12,357 bases of DNA from Thermoproteota archaeon (GCA_037917675.1 JAVCBW010000001.1:1-12357), one strand, 5' to 3'; positions 971 to 11,871 are shown, numbered from the stretch's first letter. Translations and numbers: made by a program. Notes: generated by a model from the letters alone, not told the origin.

Positions 971-2086
971 CTAGAGACCCCTAGGGACCCTGACGCCAAG
1001 CTCCTCTGACACGCTTCTGAAGTACTCTGCTGTCTTCCTGTGGACTGGGACACCCTTCTTCAGCCTAGTCTGCGTTGTGAGCCAGCTCCTCTCCCCATGG
1101 ACCCATATCTCCTTGAATTTAGGGTGCTTCCTAGCTGACTTCAAGTACCTCTTAAGCTCATCGACTCTCTCAAGGAACTCGCTGAGAGGCATAAAGGCCT
1201 CCACGTTCAGTGCAGCAAAGAAGTGCCCGACATTACTAGGCTTAGGGCCAGCTGTCCCACCAACCTGGCTCCCCCAAGCTGCTCCAGTCAGCAGCCCACA
1301 GAGCACGTCTACTGCAACAGACAGCCCATAGCCCTTATGCCCTCCAGTAAGCTCTAGAAGCCCACCTAAAGGTAGTAGCGCCCCACTCCTCAGCACAACC
1401 TCAGGGTCTCTAGTGATCTCCCCCTTCTCATCTATAGCCCAGTCAGCTGGAGCATCAAGCCCCTTCCTCCTATAGGTCTCAAACTTCCCGATTGGAACTA
1501 TCGTAGTAGCCATATCAAGGAGGAATGGAGGTGGAGTCTTAGCTGGAGCCCCTAGCGCAATGGGGTTTGTCCCTATAGTCCTCCCTAGGGCGCCAGTGTG
1601 GCATGCAAGAGGCCTAGAGTTCGTCATCGAAAGCCCTATCAGCTTCCTCTCAACAGCCATCAGAGCATAGTAGCCTGCTATCCCATAGTGATTGCTGTTC
1701 CTGACCCCTATGACACCAACCATATCACTCTCAGCCTTCCTGATAGCAAGCTCCATAGCCCTATAGCCTACAACCTGCCCAAGCCCCCTATCGCCATCAA
1801 TGAGGGCAGTACACCTGCTCTCTCTCAGAACTCTGATCTCAGGCCTAGGGTTCACAGTACCAGCCTTAAGCCCATCAACATACCTCTTAAGCCTAGCTAC
1901 ACCATGAGACTCTATTCCTCTGAGGTCAGCTGTCACAAGCACATCAGCTGTGATCTCAGCGTCTCCTCTAGGAACCCCAAGCTTCTCGAAGACATCAGCT
2001 ACAAACCTCCTAAGCTCCCTGTGATCTAATCGAACATACTCCTCAGGTGGAGCAGAGACCTTTTCAAACTCCAAGTAAGCCACCAC
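971..2086 (-). CDS. Ldh_2-family (type 2 malate/L-lactate/L-sulfolactate/ureidoglycolate) NAD(P)-dependent oxidoreductase
   Basis: 371 aa with ADLRGIESHG, NSNHYG, GTNPIA, LDMATT, GGHKGYGL and GHFFAAL signatures. GTG start preceded by a GGTGGGG SD-like sequence. Substrate cannot be resolved by eye. Confidence 0.93.
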   Translation of the reverse strand: MVAYLEFEKVSAPPEEYVRLDHRELRRFVADVFEKLGVPRGDAEITADVLVTADLRGIESHGVARLKRYVDGLKAGTVNPRPEIRVLRESRCTALIDGDRGLGQVVGYRAMELAIRKAESDMVGVIGVRNSNHYGIAGYYALMAVERKLIGLSMTNSRPLACHTGALGRTIGTNPIALGAPAKTPPPFLLDMATTIVPIGKFETYRRKGLDAPADWAIDEKGEITRDPEVVLRSGALLPLGGLLELTGGHKGYGLSVAVDVLCGLLTGAAWGSQVGGTAGPKPSNVGHFFAALNVEAFMPLSEFLERVDELKRYLKSARKHPKFKEIWVHGERSWLTTQTRLKKGVPVHRKTAEYFRSVSEELGVRVPRGL

Positions 2087-2496: not shown

Positions 2497-2518
2497 CTAC
2501 ATGGCCACCGGGGCAGCT

Positions 2519-3631
2519 GTGGAGAGTAGATCTCTGCTTGCCTTAGCTCTAGCCATCCTGCTGGCATCCCTCTTGATAGCTGAGGCTAGAGGAGTTTCTC
2601 CAGTTCATGTGGTTGAGGCTGTAGCAGGAGACGCAGGTACCTGGAGCCTCCTAGCCTCCATATCGATGATGATGGCTATGGGAGAGCTATACAGGGGATC
2701 TGGAGCTGCAGAGGAGCTTGCTTCAGAGCTTAGAGCGATGCTTAAGAGTGGCAGAGTCGTAGTCTTCGCTGTAGCAGCAGTCTTCGGCTTGCTGCCGATG
2801 CCTGGTGGAGCACTATTATCTGCACCACTGGTAGATGAGGAGGGTAAGAAGATTGGGATGAAGAGAGAGGATATAGCTCTTGCAAACGTCTGGTTCAGAC
2901 ACATAGTCTTCCTGGTTTTCCCACTTACTCCAAGCTTCCTTCTAGCTGAAGCAATAGCTGAAGTAAGCATCTACAAGATAGCCTTGTTCCAAGTTCCAGC
3001 TTTCATCCTGTCAACTGTGATAGGGCTAGCTAAGCTCAAAGGGTACTCTGAGCCCCCCTCAGCCCACCTAAGCTCTAGGCCAGCTAAGCTGCTCTTACTC
3101 CTGATGCCAATAGCCTCAGCTGTCCTCCTAGGGGTCGCTGGGGTCCCAGTACCTATAGCTATTCTAGCTGGGGTAGCTATCCTAGCAGCTATCTCCCATC
3201 CTAGCAGAAGGCAGCTAGCAGATGCTGTCAGCTTCGCGCTCAGCCCACACGTCCTAGCGATAGCATTCAGCTCTCTCGTATTAAGGAGGACGCTCGAGGA
3301 CATGCAGCTGAAGGTCGCTATCCCAGGCTACCTGTACATCCCATGTGCGTCTATTGCAGCAGCTGCCCTAGCTCTAGTAGCAGGGTCGCCTCTAGCTGCA
3401 GTGGGTGCAGTTCTACCAGTATTCGCTGAGCAAGGCAATCTCCCTATGACAAGCGTCATCATAGTGTCATCTTGGACAGGATACCTCTGCTCACCTCTCC
3501 ATCTCTGTAGTATCCTGACATCAAGCTACGTGAGCTCAAGCCTAAAAAGCCTTATTAAGGACATAGCTGGGTTAGCGGTCCCGATACTCATCGCCACCAC
3601 AGCTCAAGCAGCCATAGCTCTAGCTGTGTAG
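2519..3631 (+). CDS. DUF401 (TIGR00529) family multi-pass membrane protein, putative transporter
   Basis: Highly hydrophobic, with GLLPMPGGALLSAPLV, NVWFRH and GYLCSPLHLC motifs typical of DUF401. The ORF track starts at ATG 2501; GTG 2519 fits promoter spacing better. Confidence 0.88.
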   Translation: MESRSLLALALAILLASLLIAEARGVSPVHVVEAVAGDAGTWSLLASISMMMAMGELYRGSGAAEELASELRAMLKSGRVVVFAVAAVFGLLPMPGGALLSAPLVDEEGKKIGMKREDIALANVWFRHIVFLVFPLTPSFLLAEAIAEVSIYKIALFQVPAFILSTVIGLAKLKGYSEPPSAHLSSRPAKLLLLLMPIASAVLLGVAGVPVPIAILAGVAILAAISHPSRRQLADAVSFALSPHVLAIAFSSLVLRRTLEDMQLKVAIPGYLYIPCASIAAAALALVAGSPLAAVGAVLPVFAEQGNLPMTSVIIVSSWTGYLCSPLHLCSILTSSYVSSSLKSLIKDIAGLAVPILIATTAQAAIALAV

Positions 3632-3790: not shown

Positions 3791-4468
3791 CTAGCCTACT
3801 ACATGAGCTGCTATGAGCTGAGTGACATCTAAGACCTTAGCCTCACATCCTGCTCTTCCCGCTGCCTCCCTGAGCTGTAGCAGGCAGAATGGGCAGCTTG
3901 TAACCACATAGTCTGGGCTTTGTGAAAGCAGATCTCTGAGAAGCAGAGCTGCTACCTCAGCTGACTCCTCTGGATACAGAGCTCTGAAGCCTCCTCCAGC
4001 ACCACAACACGCCAAGCTAGACTCAACAACTCTACCTATAGCCTTAAGCAGAGTGATAGGCTCCTCTCTAATACCAAGGTGCCTAGCTAGATGGCATGGA
4101 TGATGGTAAGCTATGGTGTAGCCTAGCTTAGGCAGCTTCAGCACACCTCTTCTATATGCTTCAGCTAAGACCTCTACAGTATGCTTTACCCTAGGAGGCT
4201 TCACCCCAACTAGGGGGTAGTCTATCTTAAAGGCTCTGTAGCAGCCTGCACATGACGTGACAACTTCTCTTTCACCCAAGAGCTCAGAGTTGTATCCAGC
4301 TAGCTCCCTGAAGGCCTTAATGTCACCAAGCCTATATAGCACTGAGCCACAGCACCTCCAGCCTTCAGCTACCTCAACCCTGAGCCCAGCAGCCTCTAGA
4401 ACAGCTAGAGTAGCCTCGTAGACCTCTCTAACACGCTGCTCAGCCACGCAGCCAGGGAAGTAGAGCAA
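3791..4468 (-). CDS. Stand-alone cysteine-rich CCG-domain (Fe-S)-binding protein (HdrB/HdrD/GlpC/GlcF-like), no ferredoxin domain
   Basis: 225 aa: LYFPGC...CCG...TSCAGC and YHHPCHL...CCGAGGG...TSCPFC are two CCG repeats. TTG start with SD GAGGTGA (4479-4473). Confidence 0.9.
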   Translation of the reverse strand: MLYFPGCVAEQRVREVYEATLAVLEAAGLRVEVAEGWRCCGSVLYRLGDIKAFRELAGYNSELLGEREVVTSCAGCYRAFKIDYPLVGVKPPRVKHTVEVLAEAYRRGVLKLPKLGYTIAYHHPCHLARHLGIREEPITLLKAIGRVVESSLACCGAGGGFRALYPEESAEVAALLLRDLLSQSPDYVVTSCPFCLLQLREAAGRAGCEAKVLDVTQLIAAHVVG

Positions 4469-4676: not shown

Positions 4677-4684
4677 CTTAATAA
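4677..4684 (+). promoter_or_regulatory. TATA box of the FAD/Fe-S/kinase operon (leaderless)
   Basis: CTTAATAA ends ~23 nt before ATG 4707; no clear SD present. Confidence 0.6.
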
Positions 4685-4706
4685 GCAGTAGCTCAAGTAG
4701 GCTGCT

Positions 4707-6053
4707 ATGGCCATCAGCCGTGTGATAGCTGAGATAGAGGCTGCTGGAGTCAAGCTATCTACATCCTTAGAGGACAGGCTAGCCTACTGCAAGGACTATA
4801 ATCCTCTACACCTCCATAGACTCCTCAGGAGGGAGGTTCCTGCACTACCTGATGCAGTGGCCTTCCCTAGGAGCATAGATGATGTTTCAGCTGTCCTGAG
4901 GGCTGCTAGTGCTCATGGTGTGCCAGTCTACGTGTTTGGTGGGGCGAGTGGAGTGATGGATGCTGCCACACCATATGAGGGAGGGATAGCTCTATCTACT
5001 CTAGGCCTAGACTGGATTGAAGTTGACGTTGAGAACAGGCTAGCTACAGCTGGAGCTGGCGTCATAGGAGGGAAGCTCGAGAAGGCTCTAAACGCCTATG
5101 GGCTTACACTCAGACACTCCCCTCAGAGCCTCTACTGCTCTACTGTTGGCGGGTGGGTTGCTACAGCTGCAAGCGGCCAGTACTCTACAGGCTATGGTAG
5201 CATAGAGGATCTAGTGGTTTCGCTCACTGTTGTTCTACCTAGCGGTGAGGTCCTTGAGGAGACCAAGGCTCCTAGGAGAGCTGGCCCAGACCTCAAGAAG
5301 CTCTTCATAGGAAGCGAGGGGGCTCTAGGTGTTGTAGCTGAGGCCACACTGAAGGTGTTTGATGCTCCAGAGGAGGCTGCCATGCTCTCGCTGGAGTACA
5401 GCAGCCTGAGGGAGGCTCTAGCAGAAGCTAGGAGGCTAGTAGCCATGAAGCCTGCTCTCATGAGGCTGTTCGACGAGGAGGAGTCTCTCAGGTACTTTGA
5501 TGTAGAGAAGCCTACGCTGATAGCTATATTTGAGGGCCAGGACGCTAGCCAGAGAGCTGAGGCAGCTGCTAGAGCTCTGGAGGGTAGGAGAGCTGAAGGC
5601 TACGCTGAGACGTGGATGGGGAAGAGGTTTGATGTCTCTGACATATCTCGCATAGTACCACTTGGCTTCATCTTCGACACCATAGAGGTCGCTTGCTTCT
5701 GGAGCAGCGCTGAGCGCCTATACAGGTCTGTCATTGAGGCTATCAGGAGCGTAAAGGGGACTGTGATGGCTTCAGCTCACGCGTCACACTTCTATTATAG
5801 CGGGCTATGCTTCTACTTCACCTTCGTCGGGCTGCCAGCTGACATCGAAGAGTACTACCATGAGGTCTGGAAGCAAGCTATGAAAGCCTCCCTGGAGAGC
5901 GGAGGCAACATAACACACCACCACGGGGTAGGTAGGCTGAGGAAGCCCTGGCTTAGAGCTGAGATAAAAGGGTACTATAGCCTCCTAGAGAAGATCAAGG
6001 ACATGGTGGATGAGAGGAGGCTGCTTAACAAGGGTGTGCTCCTTGACACTTAG
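4707..6053 (+). CDS. FAD-binding oxidoreductase of the VAO/PCMH family, alkyl-dihydroxyacetone-phosphate synthase (AGPS/YgcU)-like
   Basis: 448 aa; PDAVAFP, FGGASGV, HSPQSLYCSTVGGWVATAASGQYSTGYGSIEDLV, GSEGALGV, HASHFY, LCFYFTF and ITHHHGVG. The triple-His HHHGVG and STxGGW are AGPS-type, whereas GlcD/D-lactate dehydrogenases have GEHGxG. Confidence 0.88.
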   Translation: MAISRVIAEIEAAGVKLSTSLEDRLAYCKDYNPLHLHRLLRREVPALPDAVAFPRSIDDVSAVLRAASAHGVPVYVFGGASGVMDAATPYEGGIALSTLGLDWIEVDVENRLATAGAGVIGGKLEKALNAYGLTLRHSPQSLYCSTVGGWVATAASGQYSTGYGSIEDLVVSLTVVLPSGEVLEETKAPRRAGPDLKKLFIGSEGALGVVAEATLKVFDAPEEAAMLSLEYSSLREALAEARRLVAMKPALMRLFDEEESLRYFDVEKPTLIAIFEGQDASQRAEAAARALEGRRAEGYAETWMGKRFDVSDISRIVPLGFIFDTIEVACFWSSAERLYRSVIEAIRSVKGTVMASAHASHFYYSGLCFYFTFVGLPADIEEYYHEVWKQAMKASLESGGNITHHHGVGRLRKPWLRAEIKGYYSLLEKIKDMVDERRLLNKGVLLDT

Positions 6054-7059
6054 CCCAAAGCTCGTAGCTAGGCTGCTTGCTAGAGCTGACACAGGAACCA
6101 AGCTGAGGCTAGCTAAGGCAGCCTTCAAGCTCAAGAAGGCAGATGACTTTGCTAGGTGCATGCTATGCCCAAACATGTGCCTCCACATGTGCCCTGTCTT
6201 CGATGTGGAGCGGAGGCTAACAGTATCACCCTCTGTGAAGATGAGGCTAGCATACTTCATGAGAGAAGAGGTGTTTGACGCAATATACCACTGCCTCCCA
6301 TGTGACGCATGCAAAGTAAGCTGTCCAATGGAGATAAGCGTAGGTGAGAAGCTGGCTGAAGCTAGGGCAGGACACAGGAGCAAGCTAGCTGAGGAGGCAG
6401 CCAGGGAGGCAGAGGAGCTCATGGCTGAAGCAAGGAGGGAAGCTGAGCAGGAGGAGCGAGATGGGAGAGTCCTCTACTTCCCAGGCTGCAGAGCCTTTGA
6501 GGCAGGGCTCTTCAAGCCCACGGTAGAAGCCCTAGAGAAGCTTGGCGTAGACTTCGCTGTTAGCAGCCAGCTGGTGTGCTGTGGGATGCCCTACTATGAG
6601 CTTGGGCTCAGAGAGAAGTTCAGGGAGCACACCAAAGCGCTGAGGAAGCTGTCAAGGTATGAGAGCGTCGTGAGCAGCTGCCCACACTGCATCTACATCA
6701 TGAGGAAGCTTGGCATAAGAGCTGAGCACATCACAACACTGCTGAAACCCATCAGGATAGGAGGAGACATATCCTACCACGACCCCTGCATACTAGCGAG
6801 GAGACTGAATGTGGTTGAGGAGCCACGCAAGCTGCTTGAAAGCATGGGCTTCAAGCTACATGAACCGCTGTACAGCAGGCACGAGACATACTGCTGCGGC
6901 TACGGCGGAGTCTACAGGCTCATCGACAGGGAGCACGCGGAGAAGGTTGCTGAAGCTAGGAGAAGCCACTTCACCCACGAGGCTGTAACCACATGTCCAG
7001 CATGCAAGATGGCACTTAAAGCAAAGGACATCATAGAGCTAGTGGTGATGGAGCTATGA
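6043..7059 (+). CDS. (Fe-S)-binding oxidoreductase subunit: 2x[4Fe-4S] dicluster plus two CCG domains (GlpC/GlcF/HdrD-like)
   Basis: CMLCPNMCLHMCP, CLPCDACKVSCP, YFPGC..CCG..SSCPHC, YHDPC..CCGYGG..TTCPAC. ORF track start is 6010; TTG 6043 with GGGTG 6 nt upstream, overlapping the previous stop, is more plausible. Confidence 0.9.
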   Translation: MTLSPKLVARLLARADTGTKLRLAKAAFKLKKADDFARCMLCPNMCLHMCPVFDVERRLTVSPSVKMRLAYFMREEVFDAIYHCLPCDACKVSCPMEISVGEKLAEARAGHRSKLAEEAAREAEELMAEARREAEQEERDGRVLYFPGCRAFEAGLFKPTVEALEKLGVDFAVSSQLVCCGMPYYELGLREKFREHTKALRKLSRYESVVSSCPHCIYIMRKLGIRAEHITTLLKPIRIGGDISYHDPCILARRLNVVEEPRKLLESMGFKLHEPLYSRHETYCCGYGGVYRLIDREHAEKVAEARRSHFTHEAVTTCPACKMALKAKDIIELVVMEL

Positions 7060-8531
7060 TAGCTGTGGTTGATGCAGGCACAACCATGATAAAGCTAGCA
7101 GTCTACGACGATGGGAAGCTAGTGGAGCTGCTGAAGGACCCTATCAGGAAGCATAGCCCTCAGCCAGGTTGGGTTGAGATCGACGCAGAGGACCTAGCGA
7201 GGAAGTGCATCAGGCTAGTCGACGAAGCCATGGAAAAGCATGAGATAGAGGCTATAGCTGTGACAAACCAGAGGGCTACAGCTGTGCTCTGGGATGAGAG
7301 GACAGGGAAGCCAGTGATGCCAGCTGTAGGCTGGCAGGACACACGTGCAGAGCCTACTGCAGCAGAGCTGAACAGAAGGTGGGTGCTGAGAGCTGGGAGG
7401 GCCCTAGGGAAGCTCACGTCGCTAGCTGCAGCAGCCCTACCGAGGCTGAAGGCCAGCAGGAGAGCTAAGTGGCTGATCACAGTATCCAAGCTAGCTCTCA
7501 AGTCAGAGCACACCAGCATCAAGCTCAGGTGGATGCTAGATCAGCTTGGCGAGAAGGCCAGCAGGCTTAAGCTGAAGGCTGGCACAATAGACAGCTGGCT
7601 AGTCTACAGGCTCACAGGAGAGCATGTGACAGACTACTCAAATGCTGCTGCAACAGGGATGTACGACGTCTTCTACATGCACTGGAGCAATACCATCCTG
7701 AGCCTTATAGGAGTCAGTGAGGACATGCTGCCAGCTGTGAAGCCATCAGACGACGTCTTCGGAGAGTACAGGGGGATCCCTGTAACAGGGGTGATAGCAG
7801 ACCAGTCAGCCTCACTATATGCGCTAGGCTGCTGGGAGAGAAATGAGCTAAAGGTCACAAATGGGACAGGTAGCTTCATCGACCTGAACATAGGAGAAAG
7901 CCCAGCTGCATCCACAAGAGGCCTGCTGCCTCTTGTAGCATGGAGGCTAAAAGGCGAGACGAGATACATGCTAGAAGGCATAGTCCCCTACAGCGGAGCA
8001 GCCATAGAGCTCCTAAAGAGCCTAGGCCTCTACACAGATGTAAGAGAGACGTCAGACATGGCATATAGGTCAAGAGACGAGAGCCTACTTCTAATACCAG
8101 CATTCACATCCTTAGGCACACCATACTACACTCAAGCTCCAGGCCTACTCTATGGCCTATCAAACACGACATCAAGAGAAGACATAGTTAAAGCCCTGCT
8201 AGAAGCAATAGCATTCAGGATAGCAGAGGTAGTAGACCTCATGAGGTCAGAGCTATGGAAGCCGAGGAAGATAAAGTGTGATGGAGAGGCCTCATCAAAC
8301 GACTTCCTACTACAGAGGATAGCTGACACAACAGGGCTACCAGTTGAGAGGCCAACAATCCTCTCAGGATCATCATATGGAGCACACCTCATAGCTGGAA
8401 GAGCTCTAGGGAAGTGGAAGAGAGGCCAACAGATCCCAGTAGCAAGAGTGTTCAAAAGGGAAAGAATCCTCACAGAGAAGTACACAAGGTGGAGAAAGCT
8501 CCTCAAGAAAGCCATCTCCATGAGAGTCTAG
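7056..8531 (+). CDS. FGGY-family kinase, glycerol kinase 5 (GK5)-like
   Basis: 491 aa; DAGTT, PGWVEID, TNQR, WQDTR, GTIDSWL, TDYSNAAATG, ADQSA, KVTNGTGSFIDLN, DGEASSNDF. ATGA overlap with the upstream stop, SD GGTGATGG. Confidence 0.92.
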   Translation: MIAVVDAGTTMIKLAVYDDGKLVELLKDPIRKHSPQPGWVEIDAEDLARKCIRLVDEAMEKHEIEAIAVTNQRATAVLWDERTGKPVMPAVGWQDTRAEPTAAELNRRWVLRAGRALGKLTSLAAAALPRLKASRRAKWLITVSKLALKSEHTSIKLRWMLDQLGEKASRLKLKAGTIDSWLVYRLTGEHVTDYSNAAATGMYDVFYMHWSNTILSLIGVSEDMLPAVKPSDDVFGEYRGIPVTGVIADQSASLYALGCWERNELKVTNGTGSFIDLNIGESPAASTRGLLPLVAWRLKGETRYMLEGIVPYSGAAIELLKSLGLYTDVRETSDMAYRSRDESLLLIPAFTSLGTPYYTQAPGLLYGLSNTTSREDIVKALLEAIAFRIAEVVDLMRSELWKPRKIKCDGEASSNDFLLQRIADTTGLPVERPTILSGSSYGAHLIAGRALGKWKRGQQIPVARVFKRERILTEKYTRWRKLLKKAISMRV

Positions 8532-8921: not shown

Positions 8922-9350
8922 ATGGGAGTGAGGGTGAGGCTGAAGATAAGGGGAGCTGAGAGGGAGCTAGAGTCTTCAGCGCTCATTAGCACAGGCTTTG
9001 AGGCTGATGAGCCTGAGGTCCTGCTTCCAGCTAAGCTTGCTGAGGAGCTAGGCCTGTATCCTCCTAAGACAGGTGCTATAGTCTAGGAGTATGATGTTGT
9101 TGGTGGAGTAGCTATACTCATCAAGTGCCCTGAGAAGGTTTATGTCAAGGTGGAAGCTGAAGACAGGGAGACAGACTTTATTGAAGCACTCCAGTAGTAT
9201 CTGCAGGTGAAAGTGAGGTCTTGATCAGCGGCATGCTGGCTTCAGCTCTCAAGCTGTCAGTAGTAGACCCTGCTAAGGGCATATGGAAGTTCAGAGACGA
9301 CCCATCTAGCACCACTAGGGAAGAGTGCTTCTCTGACATGCTGGGAGTAG
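8922..9350 (+). pseudogene. Pseudogene of a small archaeal hypothetical protein, possibly clan AA (retropepsin-like) fold
   Basis: ATG 8922 reads MGVRVRLKIRGAERELESSALISTGFEADEPEVLLPAKLAEELGLYPPKTGAIV*(TAG 9084-9086)EYDVVGG...TDFIEA. After a frameshift at ~9188 it continues TPVVSAGESEVLISGMLASALKLSVVDPAKGIWKFRDDPSSTTR. A probable second shift at ~9320 gives KSASLTCWE* (9350). Purine-rich, coding-like codons throughout. Confidence 0.75.
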
Positions 9351-9423
9351 CCTGCCACCTGATAGTGCAAGCTACATGGCTTTAAGGATATCTTGCGACG
9401 GCCTGTAGGCTACAGCTGCCCAC

Positions 9424-9465: not shown

Positions 9466-10668
9466 ATGCCAGATTTCAGCTTTACTGAAGAGCAGGAGCT
9501 TTTTAGGAAGACTGTCCGCGAGTTCTGTGAGAGGGAGCTTGAGCCTAGAGCTAGGGAGATAGATGAGAAGGGTGAGATACCAGATGTAGTCATCAAGGGG
9601 ATGGCGAAGCTGGGGCTAATGGGCATCATGCTATCATCAGAGTATGGTGGAAGCGAGGCTGATGTCACAACAGCTGCCATAGCTGCTGAGGAGATTGCTA
9701 GAGCTGACATAAGCTGTGCTACCGCCGTCTACTACCTAGTGCAGGCAGGCTGGAGCTACATATTCGAGAGGTATGGGAAGCCAGAGTGGAAGGATGAGAT
9801 ACTGCCAAAGCTCACTAAAGGGGAGGCCTGGGTTGGGATAGCTACAACAGAGCCAGGTGGAGGCTCAGATCTCGTTGGGATGAAAACCACGATGAAGAAG
9901 GTCGATGGAAAGTGGATCTTGAACGGTGAGAAAGCATACATAAGCGGCATAAGAGAAGTCTTGAAGTATGGTGGAGTCCACATGACTCTAGTGAAGACAG
10001 CTCCAGAGCTAGCACACAAGGGAATGACCTTCATTGCCCTACCGATAAAGGAGGCAAAGGGCATAGAAGTCTCATTCTTCGAGGACATGGGTAGGATGGG
10101 GATCTCAACTGGAGCCTTCAAGATGGACAGCGTGGAAGTCGATGAGAAGTGGATTGTAGGAGAGCTGAACAGAGGCTTCTACTATGCCATGGAAGGCTTC
10201 AATGTAGCTAGAGTCCTTGTTGCAGCAGCCTGCATAGGTGCAGCTGAGAAAGCTCTCGAGATAGGAATGGACTACATCAAGCAGAGAACAGCATTCGGAG
10301 CCCCCATCGCAAAGTATGAAGGCATACAGTTCAGCCTAGCTGACCAAGCTACTAAGATCGAGGCAGCTAAGCTCCTAACCTATAGGGCTGCCTGGGCTGT
10401 AGACCAGTTCTATAAGGGTAAGATGAAGGTCTCAGATGTCAACAAGTATGTTGCGATGGCTAAGCTCACTGCTCCACTCTGGGCCTTCGATGCAATCAAA
10501 GATGCGATGATGTGGCATGGCGCCTACGGTTACACGAAGGAGTGCCCACTGGAAATGGGGCTCAGAGGAGTGATGTCATACTGCATTGGAGCAGAGGGGG
10601 CTCAGAACATAATGAGGATAATCATAGGAAGAGAGCTCCTAGGCAGAGAATACATGCCATACAAGTAG
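9466..10668 (+). CDS. Acyl-CoA dehydrogenase family protein
   Basis: 400 aa; FSFTEEQELFRKTVREF, TEPGGGSD, LNGEKAYIS, RTAFGAPIAKYEGIQF, HGAYGY and IGAEGAQNIMR (Glu at the canonical catalytic position). Confidence 0.96.
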   Translation: MPDFSFTEEQELFRKTVREFCERELEPRAREIDEKGEIPDVVIKGMAKLGLMGIMLSSEYGGSEADVTTAAIAAEEIARADISCATAVYYLVQAGWSYIFERYGKPEWKDEILPKLTKGEAWVGIATTEPGGGSDLVGMKTTMKKVDGKWILNGEKAYISGIREVLKYGGVHMTLVKTAPELAHKGMTFIALPIKEAKGIEVSFFEDMGRMGISTGAFKMDSVEVDEKWIVGELNRGFYYAMEGFNVARVLVAAACIGAAEKALEIGMDYIKQRTAFGAPIAKYEGIQFSLADQATKIEAAKLLTYRAAWAVDQFYKGKMKVSDVNKYVAMAKLTAPLWAFDAIKDAMMWHGAYGYTKECPLEMGLRGVMSYCIGAEGAQNIMRIIIGRELLGREYMPYK

Positions 10669-10677
10669 GGGGGTCTT

Positions 10678-11871
10678 TTGCCTCCTCCCCTAGAGGGGAT
10701 CAGAGTCCTAGACCTCTCAAGGATACTAACAGGCCCATTCTGCACCATGATACTAGGAGACCTAGGAGCTGAAGTGATCAAAGTAGAGATGCCAGGTCGA
10801 GGAGACGACACACGAAGCTGGGGGCCACCCTTCCTAGATGGAGAAGCAGCATACTTCCTCTCAGTAAACAGGAACAAGAAGAGCATAACAGTAAACCTCA
10901 AGGCAGAGAAAGGCCGGGAGATAGTCTACAAGCTAGCTGAGAAGTCTGACGTGCTCATAGAAAACTTCTCACCCGGGGTAACAGAGAGGCTTAGAATAGA
11001 CTACAAGACGATAAGCAGGATAAACCCCAAGATAGTCTACTGCTCAATAACTGGGTTCGGGCAGACAGGCCCATACAGGAGCAGAGTAGCCTATGACATA
11101 ATCCTACAAGGCATGGGAGGCTTCATGGGGATAACAGGGGAGCCAGATAGGCCTCCCGTGAGGATAGGGGTTGCGATAACAGACCTGATAGCAGGGATGT
11201 ATGCTGCAATAGCCATACTCTCAGCTCTCAGAGCCAGAGACCAGACTGGGAGAGGACAGTACATAGATATAGCTCTGCTAGACAGCACAGTGAGCTTCAT
11301 GACCTATATGGCAGCAAACTACTTTGCAACAGGAGAGGTTCCACCTAGAATGGGCTCAGCTCACCCTAACATAGTCCCATACCAGTGCTTCAAGGCTGGC
11401 GACGGGAAGTACTTCACTTTGGCTGTCGCAAACGATAGGATATGGCAGAGCTTCTGTAAGGCAGTTGGCCTAGAGCACCTAGCAGAAGACACACGCTTCA
11501 AGACGAACCCAGATAGGGTCAGGAACAGAAGCCAGCTCATACCCATGCTAGAGAAGCTCTTCCTAGAGAAGCCAAGAGACGAGTGGCTAAAGATACTAGA
11601 GGAGAACAGGGTTCCAGCTGGCCCAGTATACACAATGGACGAGGTTTTCAGCGACCCACAGGTGCTACACCGCGAAATGCTCATAGAGATGAGCCACCCC
11701 AAGATAGGCAAGATAAAGCAGATAGGCACACCAATGAAGCTCTCAGAGACCCACTGTGAGATAAAGCTGCCACCACCACTACTAGGCCAGCACACAGAAG
11801 AAGTCCTCAAAGACCTACTAGGATACACCCAAGAGGAGATAAAGCAGCTAAGAGAGCAGGGAGTAATCTAA
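10678..11871 (+). CDS. CaiB/BaiF (family III) CoA-transferase
   Basis: 397 aa; PLEGIRVLDLSRILTGPF, LGDLGAEVIKVE, GDDTR, NRNKKS, ENFSPG, SITGFGQTGP, ITDLIAG (catalytic Asp), PPLLGQHTEEVL. TTG start 9 nt after the upstream stop, SD AGGGGGT. Confidence 0.96.
   Translation: MPPPLEGIRVLDLSRILTGPFCTMILGDLGAEVIKVEMPGRGDDTRSWGPPFLDGEAAYFLSVNRNKKSITVNLKAEKGREIVYKLAEKSDVLIENFSPGVTERLRIDYKTISRINPKIVYCSITGFGQTGPYRSRVAYDIILQGMGGFMGITGEPDRPPVRIGVAITDLIAGMYAAIAILSALRARDQTGRGQYIDIALLDSTVSFMTYMAANYFATGEVPPRMGSAHPNIVPYQCFKAGDGKYFTLAVANDRIWQSFCKAVGLEHLAEDTRFKTNPDRVRNRSQLIPMLEKLFLEKPRDEWLKILEENRVPAGPVYTMDEVFSDPQVLHREMLIEMSHPKIGKIKQIGTPMKLSETHCEIKLPPPLLGQHTEEVLKDLLGYTQEEIKQLREQGVI

Follow-up and report, generated by a model that had tools for sequence, protein, structure and literature searches.

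Alkyldihydroxyacetonephosphate synthase (AGPS or ADPS, EC 2.5.1.26) is a flavin adenine dinucleotide (FAD) enzyme in which a fatty alcohol replaces the acyl group of acyl-dihydroxyacetone phosphate (acyl-DHAP). Catalytic roles have been assigned in the AGPS literature to Arg419, Tyr578 and the loop of His615-617, and this Arg/Tyr/HHH set serves chemistry at the C1-O bond of DHAP, not abstraction of a hydride from a hydroxy acid. Glycerol kinase (GlpK), for its part, recognizes its substrate with a signature of five residues: according to PMC3245297, Arg83, Glu84, Tyr135 and Asp245 hydrogen-bond the hydroxyls of glycerol, with Phe270 as the fifth, and PMC2680290 is in agreement. Relatives of both enzymes meet in the three-gene locus described here, which lies in a stretch of 12,357 nucleotides from a Thermoproteota archaeon (GCA_037917675.1, JAVCBW010000001.1:1-12357; hereafter the window) and encodes a flavoprotein (P0001), an iron-sulfur (Fe-S) protein with CCG motifs (P0002) and an FGGY kinase (P0003). 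We read the trio as one module that catabolizes a glycerol derivative, not free glycerol; it is a conserved module, it is no AGPS, and it is probably not an ordinary set of glycerol kinase and sn-glycerol-3-phosphate (G3P) dehydrogenase either.

The flavoprotein is built of two Pfam domains, FAD_binding_4 (E-value 4.9e-38) and FAD-oxidase_C (2.7e-25). An earlier reading made from the sequence alone (below, the sequence-only reading) had ascribed to it the AGPS-type motifs STVGGW and HHHGVG, which are located at residues 145-150 and 404-409. In a sequence search of PDB, its closest solved relatives are mammalian AGPS (1.7e-48) and Dictyostelium AGPS (8.5e-46), and mitochondrial D-lactate dehydrogenase is matched at 5.3e-27; a profile of 23 family members scores AGPS at 335 and 326 bits, LDHD at 213 and LctD at 204. 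The AlphaFold2 model of P0001 (predicted local distance difference test, pLDDT, 90.4) has AGPS chains as its top match in Foldseek (5ae2_B, TMq 0.91, root mean square deviation 2.4, E-value 4.7e-40), with LDHD at TMq 0.83-0.84. Scores with GlcD families are far under the cut-offs (TIGR00387, 148.9 vs 567.9 bits; PRK11230, 85.9 vs 897). By alignment, Arg253, Ser360, Tyr370 and His404-406 of P0001 correspond to AGPS Arg419, Thr568, Tyr578 and His615-617 (4bby numbering), and the equivalents of these residues are unchanged across a 23-sequence family alignment; the AGPS mutants Arg419His and Tyr578Phe appear in titles of PDB entries.

A quick maximum-likelihood tree of 66 flavoprotein rows, with three GlcD-like paralogues of the host genome as outgroup (the root branch is weak, 56), places P0001 in a short-form clade (41 rows; Shimodaira-Hasegawa-like approximate likelihood ratio test, SH-aLRT, 93) that is sister to a long-form AGPS clade (22 rows, SH-aLRT 99). 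The short-form clade includes every homologue found in Fe-S or GlpD context, E. coli YgcU and, on a long branch, two long Chondromyces proteins (P0244 and P0247). The long-form clade is made up of a eukaryote-derived sequence, a Polyangiales protein, acyltransferase fusions and GlpD fusions. P0001 thus groups with the AGPS side, and the GlcD-like paralogues of its own genome fall outside the AGPS-like group; this was the phylogenetic check proposed by the sequence-only reading, whose preference for an AGPS-like over a GlcD- or D-lactate dehydrogenase-like protein is upheld by sequence, family profile, fold and tree alike. Judged from the alignments and the tree, then, the flavoprotein is AGPS-like, yet it is no member of the AGPS clade proper, because it belongs to the short-form sister clade.

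A biosynthetic AGPS, which would make non-isoprenoid ether lipids by replacing the acyl of acyl-DHAP with a fatty alcohol while the kinase and a G3P dehydrogenase supply DHAP, would account for the retained AGPS catalytic residues. It would be in line also with the long-form relatives that are fused to a PlsC-type acyltransferase (PF01553) or to GlpD, and with the myxobacterial AGPS homologue MXAN_1676 of M. xanthus, which is implicated in ether-lipid synthesis in bioRxiv 10.1101/2025.10.10.681575. P0001, however, is a short-form protein, outside the clade of the acyltransferase fusions and devoid of the N-terminal domain and the cap insertion, and family searches found no acyltransferase or fatty-acyl reductase gene within the window. 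The same preprint states that there is no evidence of a plasmalogen pathway in Archaea, and the route leaves the kinase and the Fe-S partner without a role. We consider a biosynthetic AGPS highly improbable.

The kinase contains FGGY_N and FGGY_C domains (Pfam). Its best family models are those of GlpK, with a score under the cut-off (TIGR01311, 337.3 bits against 590.35), and glycerol kinases of PDB match it with E-values down to 3.9e-76. Aligned with E. coli GlpK, P0003 retains three of the five signature residues, Arg83, Asp245 and Phe270, and has Ala at position 84 and Glu at position 135. The change extends to the whole set of 27 kinases encoded beside AGPS-like genes (one row, L104, is a poor open reading frame, ORF): Glu84 is found in none of them (17 Ala, 6 Ser, 3 Thr, 1 Gln) and Tyr135 in only two, with Arg83 and Asp245 retained in all 27. 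That the pocket is without the two residues that would hold the distal hydroxyls of glycerol is well supported by these alignments, and the absence of Glu84 and Tyr135 would agree with a substrate that is not free glycerol.

P0003 also has a basic amphipathic insertion of 26 residues at about residues 100-150. The interval from Trp103 to Tyr135 is 59 residues long, 13 of them Lys or Arg, vs 33 residues in E. coli GlpK, and the hydrophobic moment of the 18-residue segment that starts at residue 108 is 0.63, where the protein averages 0.25 (standard deviation 0.12); the long amphipathic insertion noticed by the sequence-only reading is therefore real. It occurs in five of the 27 linked kinases, namely P0003 itself, those of two Archaeoglobi, L032 and L033. 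The label "GK5-like", which had been given to the kinase as well, goes back to a single Atlas hint, a cluster labelled as mixed archaeal and arthropod, and is tentative.

P0002 consists of a Fer4_8 domain and two CCG stretches (Pfam), with ferredoxin-type cysteine motifs at C50/53/57/61 and C95/98/101/105 and two complete CCG motifs (C160, C190-C191-G, C224/227; C260, C295-C296-G, C329/332). The motif cysteines are invariant or almost so in 16 homologues. The nearest solved chains in profile comparison are an "iron-sulfur-binding reductase" (9ojn_A, 185.7 bits), HdrB and HdrC, and the score is under the cut-off for every named NCBIfam family (for GlpC, PRK11168, 69.6 vs 278 bits). Modelling of the FAD and Fe-S proteins as a complex, a check that the sequence-only reading had suggested, supports binding, with a score of 0.93 in each of three runs and 0.00 for the best of three controls, although a score this high may mirror likeness to already solved complexes. 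The mark used was attained by 58 of 80 solved complexes and by 2 of 110 mismatched pairs, a benchmark that is rough, since own alignments were used. The runs share at least 89% of contacts, and the pLDDT of the partner is at least 86. In the predicted interface, FAD-domain residues 77-82 and 141-144 of P0001 face the first and second cluster motifs of P0002 (48-60 and 104-107); that is, the ferredoxin-like end of the Fe-S/CCG protein is predicted to dock on the FAD domain of the flavoprotein. The modelled pair is likely to be a redox-wired enzyme, in contrast to AGPS, and the predicted docking makes net redox chemistry more likely than AGPS-style exchange alone.

The trio is found in identical gene order in six of six loci from Archaeoglobi metagenome-assembled genomes (MAGs), with 54-67% identity; these six are all the loci found by a single-protein scan of genome contigs, and the flavoprotein is present in 26 of the 96 genomes of the class to which those MAGs belong (E <= 1e-60). 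An Archaeoglobus trio, mentioned by the sequence-only reading, accordingly exists. A GpsA gene is present in four of the six loci and an alpha/beta-hydrolase gene, placed after the kinase, in three; such a hydrolase gene also stands beside the cluster in three metagenome loci. In one Archaeoglobus sp. MAG (L013), a GpsA-type NAD(P) G3P dehydrogenase and a YbjQ-family gene occupy positions 6456-8001 upstream of the trio, and the alpha/beta hydrolase is downstream, at 11830-12618. One Archaeoglobi flavoprotein orthologue (G119:C74:9808-11139, - strand) has an in-frame TGA. Within the window's own class, 7 of 40 genomes match the flavoprotein, the window genome included. The other six are 37-40% identical to it, and in each of these six loci the AGPS-like gene is beside an FGGY gene, whose product is 27-31% identical to P0003; one of them (L026) encodes in addition a DAO+BFD protein, a Rossmann-type protein and a 265-residue protein with two ferredoxin-type cysteine motifs. 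In the tree, P0001 branches from within the Archaeoglobi set (SH-aLRT 100), which suggests that the trio was transferred laterally.

Metagenome synteny extends the pairing of AGPS-like and FGGY genes widely into bacteria. Short-form AGPS-like proteins gave 834 matches at E <= 0.001 among 8000 scored candidates, and an alignment-based metagenome scan confirmed 560 stretches. Neighbours were counted by tblastn in the best-scoring 80 of these 560; these loci are related and do not amount to independent samples. Long ORFs of AGPS-like appearance in them were not taken as fusions. An FGGY gene is near in 53 of the 80, a GlpD/GlpA-like gene in 54 and a Fe-S/CCG gene in 15, and 11 have none of these. 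When the sample is narrowed to the 31 loci with full flanks (at least 2 kb upstream and at least 3.5 kb downstream), FGGY is present in 27, GlpD/GlpA-like in 29, both in 25 and Fe-S/CCG in 7, and no locus lacks all three. Two layouts dominate: glpD, AGPS-like, FGGY; and AGPS-like, Fe-S/CCG, GlpA-like (DAO+BFD), FGGY, Pyr_redox_2, DUF1667. No homologue of the GlpF-type facilitator was found in the 92 sequences searched.

Gene fusions involve the same partners. P0132, a protein of 1100 residues, has an AGPS-type domain at the front and, behind it, a GlpD part (DAO and DAO_C), and a search with its AGPS part found dozens of such AGPS-GlpD fusions of about 1100 residues in Thermodesulfobacteriota, KSB1, Calditrichaeota and others. 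Among the same matches are fusions of AGPS to the PlsC-type acyltransferase PF01553, which belong to the long-form clade. P0190, P0191, P0194, P0198, P0201 and P0204 are of this type, long-form AGPS plus PF01553 in about 800 residues, and one of them is labelled Acidimicrobiia; by their domain content they resemble the GNPAT-AGPS pair in a single chain and suggest ether-lipid synthesis in bacteria. At one locus, a 940-residue fusion of Fer4_8, two CCG domains, BON, DAO and BFD adjoins an AGPS-like gene (L036:9361-12183, + strand). This chain couples the Fe-S/CCG module to a GlpA-like dehydrogenase via BON, a putative lipid-binding domain.

Taken together, we think it probable that the flavo-Fe-S enzyme and the altered kinase act on a phosphorylated glycerol derivative at the level of DHAP. 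The more specific proposal, that a 1-O-substituted glycerol is cleaved via a DHAP-type intermediate, is tentative, and we would put it somewhat short of an even chance, with every chemical step inferred; it is the most economical scheme because of the altered kinase, the company of G3P dehydrogenases and the retained AGPS residues for C1 chemistry. The kinase would phosphorylate a 1-O-substituted glycerol, for example an alkyl- or acylglycerol, at its free sn-3 hydroxyl, and a G3P-dehydrogenase-type enzyme would oxidize C2 to give a substituted DHAP; in the host of the window, this step could fall to GlpA/GlpB, whose genes lie outside the window, or to the flavo-Fe-S enzyme. The AGPS-like site would then enolize the substituted DHAP and expel the C1 substituent via an adduct at flavin N5, with water in the place that the fatty alcohol takes in AGPS, so that the products would be DHAP and a free alcohol or acid. 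The Fe-S/CCG subunit would move flavin electrons to a quinone or to a thiol/disulfide pool or, alternatively, would keep the flavin oxidized under anoxic conditions. If the substituent were an alkyl chain, the result would be cleavage of glyceryl ethers independent of O2, from alkylglycerol through alkyl-G3P and alkyl-DHAP to DHAP and fatty alcohol, AGPS chemistry run with water. This ether-lipid version is an attractive minority hypothesis, and we hold it to be unlikely.

Alternatively, the two subunits could form a dehydrogenase for a phosphorylated polyol other than sn-G3P, such as sn-glycerol-1-phosphate or a C4/C5 polyol phosphate. The kinase would make the phosphate ester, the flavoprotein would oxidize it and pass two electrons through the Fe-S/CCG subunit, and the neighbouring GlpD/GlpA-type enzyme would catalyze a parallel or preceding step; FGGY and GlpD-like enzymes of the erythritol route provide a parallel. 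Such a dehydrogenase would agree with the modelled complex, which sets the clusters beside the FAD domain, with the paralogous pairs of GlcD-like and Fe-S/CCG genes in the host genome (on contigs C58 and C1), with the place of YgcU in E. coli beside ETF-like (electron-transfer flavoprotein-like) YgcQ/R, YgcN/O, sugar transporters and a short-chain dehydrogenase/reductase, with the polar and variable substitutes at Tyr135/Phe136 of the kinases, and with the sub-cut-off GlpK score of P0003. It does not sit well with the strict retention of the AGPS-specific Arg/Tyr/HHH set or with the GlpD fusions, which suggest successive steps on a single glycerol-phosphate skeleton, and genes for an isomerase or aldolase of a C4/C5 route do not recur in the neighbourhoods examined. 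A polyol-phosphate dehydrogenase is possible in our estimate, if rather unlikely.

The host genome, which is 92.7% complete, has other glycerol genes. Its contig C22 encodes GlpA (505 residues, TIGR03377 377 bits), GlpB (412 residues) and a 155-residue ferredoxin-type protein without CCG; an argument from a missing G3P dehydrogenase was dropped, as the genome encodes GlpA/GlpB. The only FGGY kinase in the genome other than P0003 is XylB-like, and the queries used detected neither a GpsA nor a GlpF homologue in it. A further GlcD-like stretch gives identical matches (E-value, identity, frame length) on two contigs, C30:3095-3682 and C33:3025-3612, and is probably duplicated or redundantly assembled.

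These genes bear on the possibility of ordinary anaerobic glycerol catabolism, with P0003 as the glycerol kinase of the host and with a non-canonical sn-G3P dehydrogenase, formed by the AGPS-like and Fe-S proteins, that sends electrons to the membrane. P0003 is the only GlpK-like kinase in the genome, and GlpK gives its best matches (TIGR01311, 337 bits; PDB, to 3.9e-76); the Fe-S subunit is similar to GlpC, among other families, and a site for G3P or DHAP is plausible, the substrate of AGPS being a DHAP derivative. The pair would be redundant, however, given the GlpD/GlpA-like gene in 29 of the 31 full-flank loci and the frequent GlpD fusions, and the host already has GlpA/GlpB. Nor do the kinases look ordinary, all 27 being without Glu84 and 25 without Tyr135, and the neighbourhood is without a GlpF gene. 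In addition to the module kinase, two of three Archaeoglobi genomes encode another GlpK paralogue in which the NQRET, DPYF, GDQQ and GTGTF signature is complete; in one of the genomes (G040), this canonical paralogue adjoins an alpha/beta hydrolase and a GlpA-like gene. A. fulgidus GpsA and GlpK are mentioned in PMC5059525. The simpler alternative offered by the sequence-only reading, a non-canonical G3P dehydrogenase, is weakened by the AGPS-like gene being nearly always beside a GlpD/GlpA-type gene or fused to it: a plain substitute for G3P dehydrogenase is unlikely because the AGPS-like gene accompanies the G3P-dehydrogenase genes (in the long form, as a fusion) and does not replace them. 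We judge ordinary glycerol catabolism by this trio to be decidedly unlikely.

Several observations weigh against the cleavage of a substituted glycerol by the module. The window has no G3P-dehydrogenase gene, GlpA/GlpB being on C22, and P0003, as the sole GlpK-like kinase of its host, might simply be the glycerol kinase there. GlpK above the curated cut-off was found in none of five archaeal genomes, vs 10 of 14 control genomes, and the cut-off may be too strict for these archaeal lineages. The substitutes of Tyr135/Phe136 are polar and variable (E/H, N/Q, D/S) with no obvious hydrophobic channel, and would be unlike the lining of a lipid channel. P0001 lies outside the long-form AGPS clade with its acyltransferase fusions; it is without the N-terminal domain, the alignment beginning at AGPS residue 160-167 (87 in 2uuu), and without a segment of the cap domain (46 vs 83 residues between aligned blocks; a 28-residue gap vs 2uuu). 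The predicted docking of the Fe-S subunit would be no less in keeping with a plain dehydrogenase than with an AGPS-type exchange and, together with the ETF-type neighbours of YgcU, would suit a small-polyol-phosphate dehydrogenase about as well. The relatedness of the sampled metagenome loci counts on the same side.

The three genes are consecutive ORFs on the + strand, each overlapping the next (Table 1), as the sequence-only reading had said. The start of the Fe-S gene may be ATG 6010, GTG 6034 or TTG 6043, which gives an overlap with the flavoprotein gene of 11-44 nucleotides; its homologues start close to the later candidates (GTG 6034 / TTG 6043). The Fe-S gene ends and the kinase gene starts in a 4-nucleotide overlap, ATGA (7056-7059). 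Of the single TATA box that had been placed ahead of the genes, what stands is a TATA-like TTAATAAG which matches the consensus and is 22-29 nucleotides away from the first ATG (4707). This spacing fits a leaderless archaeal mRNA that would carry all three genes.

Table 1. Positions of the trio, its putative promoter and other features of the window
Feature	Position	Strand	Remarks
Ldh_2-family dehydrogenase gene	971-2086	-	
Membrane protein gene	2501-3631	+	DUF401/TIGR00529
Two-CCG protein gene	3791-4468	-	225 aa; divergently upstream of the trio
TATA-like box TTAATAAG	4678-4685	+	consensus resemblance only; putative promoter
Flavoprotein gene (P0001, 448 aa)	4707-6053	+	ORF; stop TAG at 6051-6053
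Fe-S subunit gene (P0002, 349 aa from ATG 6010)	6010-7059	+	ORF; HdrD/GlpC-like
Kinase gene (P0003, 491 aa)	7056-8531	+	ORF; divergent GlpK-family FGGY kinase
Region without intact ORF of at least 60 aa	8532-9465		about 930 nt
54-aa ORF	8922-9086		continues past two in-frame TAG codons
Further ORF piece	9221-9385		other frame
Acyl-CoA dehydrogenase and family III CoA-transferase genes	9466-11871	+	directly 3' of the trio region

The remaining genes of the window are less telling. The two-CCG protein is a stand-alone one without a ferredoxin domain; it is best matched by the C-terminal half of TfrB (147.8 bits; GlpC, 87), and by domain content it might be, with the 155-residue ferredoxin-type protein of C22, one half of a split GlpC. 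The Ldh_2-family dehydrogenase is closest to L-sulfolactate dehydrogenase (286 bits; cut-off 500). The region that follows the kinase gene looks, from its broken frames, like it contains a decayed small gene; scans for Pfam, Rfam and tRNA matches in the broken ORF region at 8922-9221 gave none. Families of the acyl-CoA dehydrogenase and the CoA-transferase flank the glpD/AGPS-like/FGGY clusters in 9 of the 31 full-flank metagenome loci as well. The two proteins of the window were rejected as parts of the module: a functional tie is doubtful because their identity to the cluster-flanking relatives is only 25-34%.

To our knowledge, no short-form AGPS-like protein has been characterized. Our literature search turned up nothing that connects AGPS homologues to glycerol kinase and G3P dehydrogenase in an operon, and no paper on the tunnel or residues of AGPS. 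These short-form proteins are widespread and usually annotated as "alkyldihydroxyacetonephosphate synthase" or "FAD-binding oxidoreductase". A kinase of altered GlpK type and an enzyme of the G3P-dehydrogenase type go with them in a conserved module; the data suggest that archaeal and anaerobic forms are wired to a Fe-S/CCG subunit. Transfer of the annotations "AGPS" and "glycerol kinase" to proteins of the module is unsafe. The module provides a testable entry into a branch of glycerol and glycerolipid metabolism that could include anaerobic cleavage of ethers or esters at the DHAP level. The ether-cleavage route, if true, would provide alkylglycerol monooxygenase with its first anaerobic counterpart and would give a function to a family found across archaea and bacteria, E. 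coli YgcU included.

Among known systems, AGPS (PDB 4bby and 2uuu) is the best sequence and profile match to P0001, with which it shares the two-domain PCMH/VAO FAD fold and the equivalents of Arg419, Tyr578 and His615-617, Thr568 being replaced by Ser360; it differs in that P0001 belongs to the short-form sister clade, is without the N-terminal domain and cap segment, has a predicted Fe-S partner, and shares its gene cluster with a kinase rather than with an acyltransferase or reductase. E. coli YgcU (b4463), an uncharacterized FAD dehydrogenase, is 32% identical to P0001 over 437 residues, has the same Arg, Tyr and HHH, and sits on a long branch within the same short-form clade. The FGGY kinase gene ygcE is two genes away from ygcU, so that the sequence-only reading was correct on this point, but YgcE, unlike P0003, is not GlpK-like at the signature positions, and the partners of YgcU are ETF-like (ygcQ/R) and FixC/FixX-like (ygcN/O), not a Fe-S/CCG protein. 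GlcDEF and D-lactate dehydrogenase have a similar two-subunit layout, a FAD_binding_4 flavoprotein with a ferredoxin-type/CCG protein (GlcF-type), whereas P0001 is far under the GlcD cut-offs and closer to AGPS (335/326 vs 213 bits for LDHD). GlpK and P0003 are alike in the FGGY_N/FGGY_C domains, the best matches, and Arg83, Asp245 and Phe270, and unlike in Glu84 (Ala), Tyr135 (Glu), the 26-residue basic insertion and the score, which is under the cut-off. With GlpABC, finally, the differences are that the catalytic partner of P0002 is not a DAO-family GlpA, that its score is under the GlpC cut-off and that the GlpA/GlpB of the host are on C22; what P0002 shares with GlpC and HdrD is their layout, a ferredoxin-like domain joined to two CCG domains.

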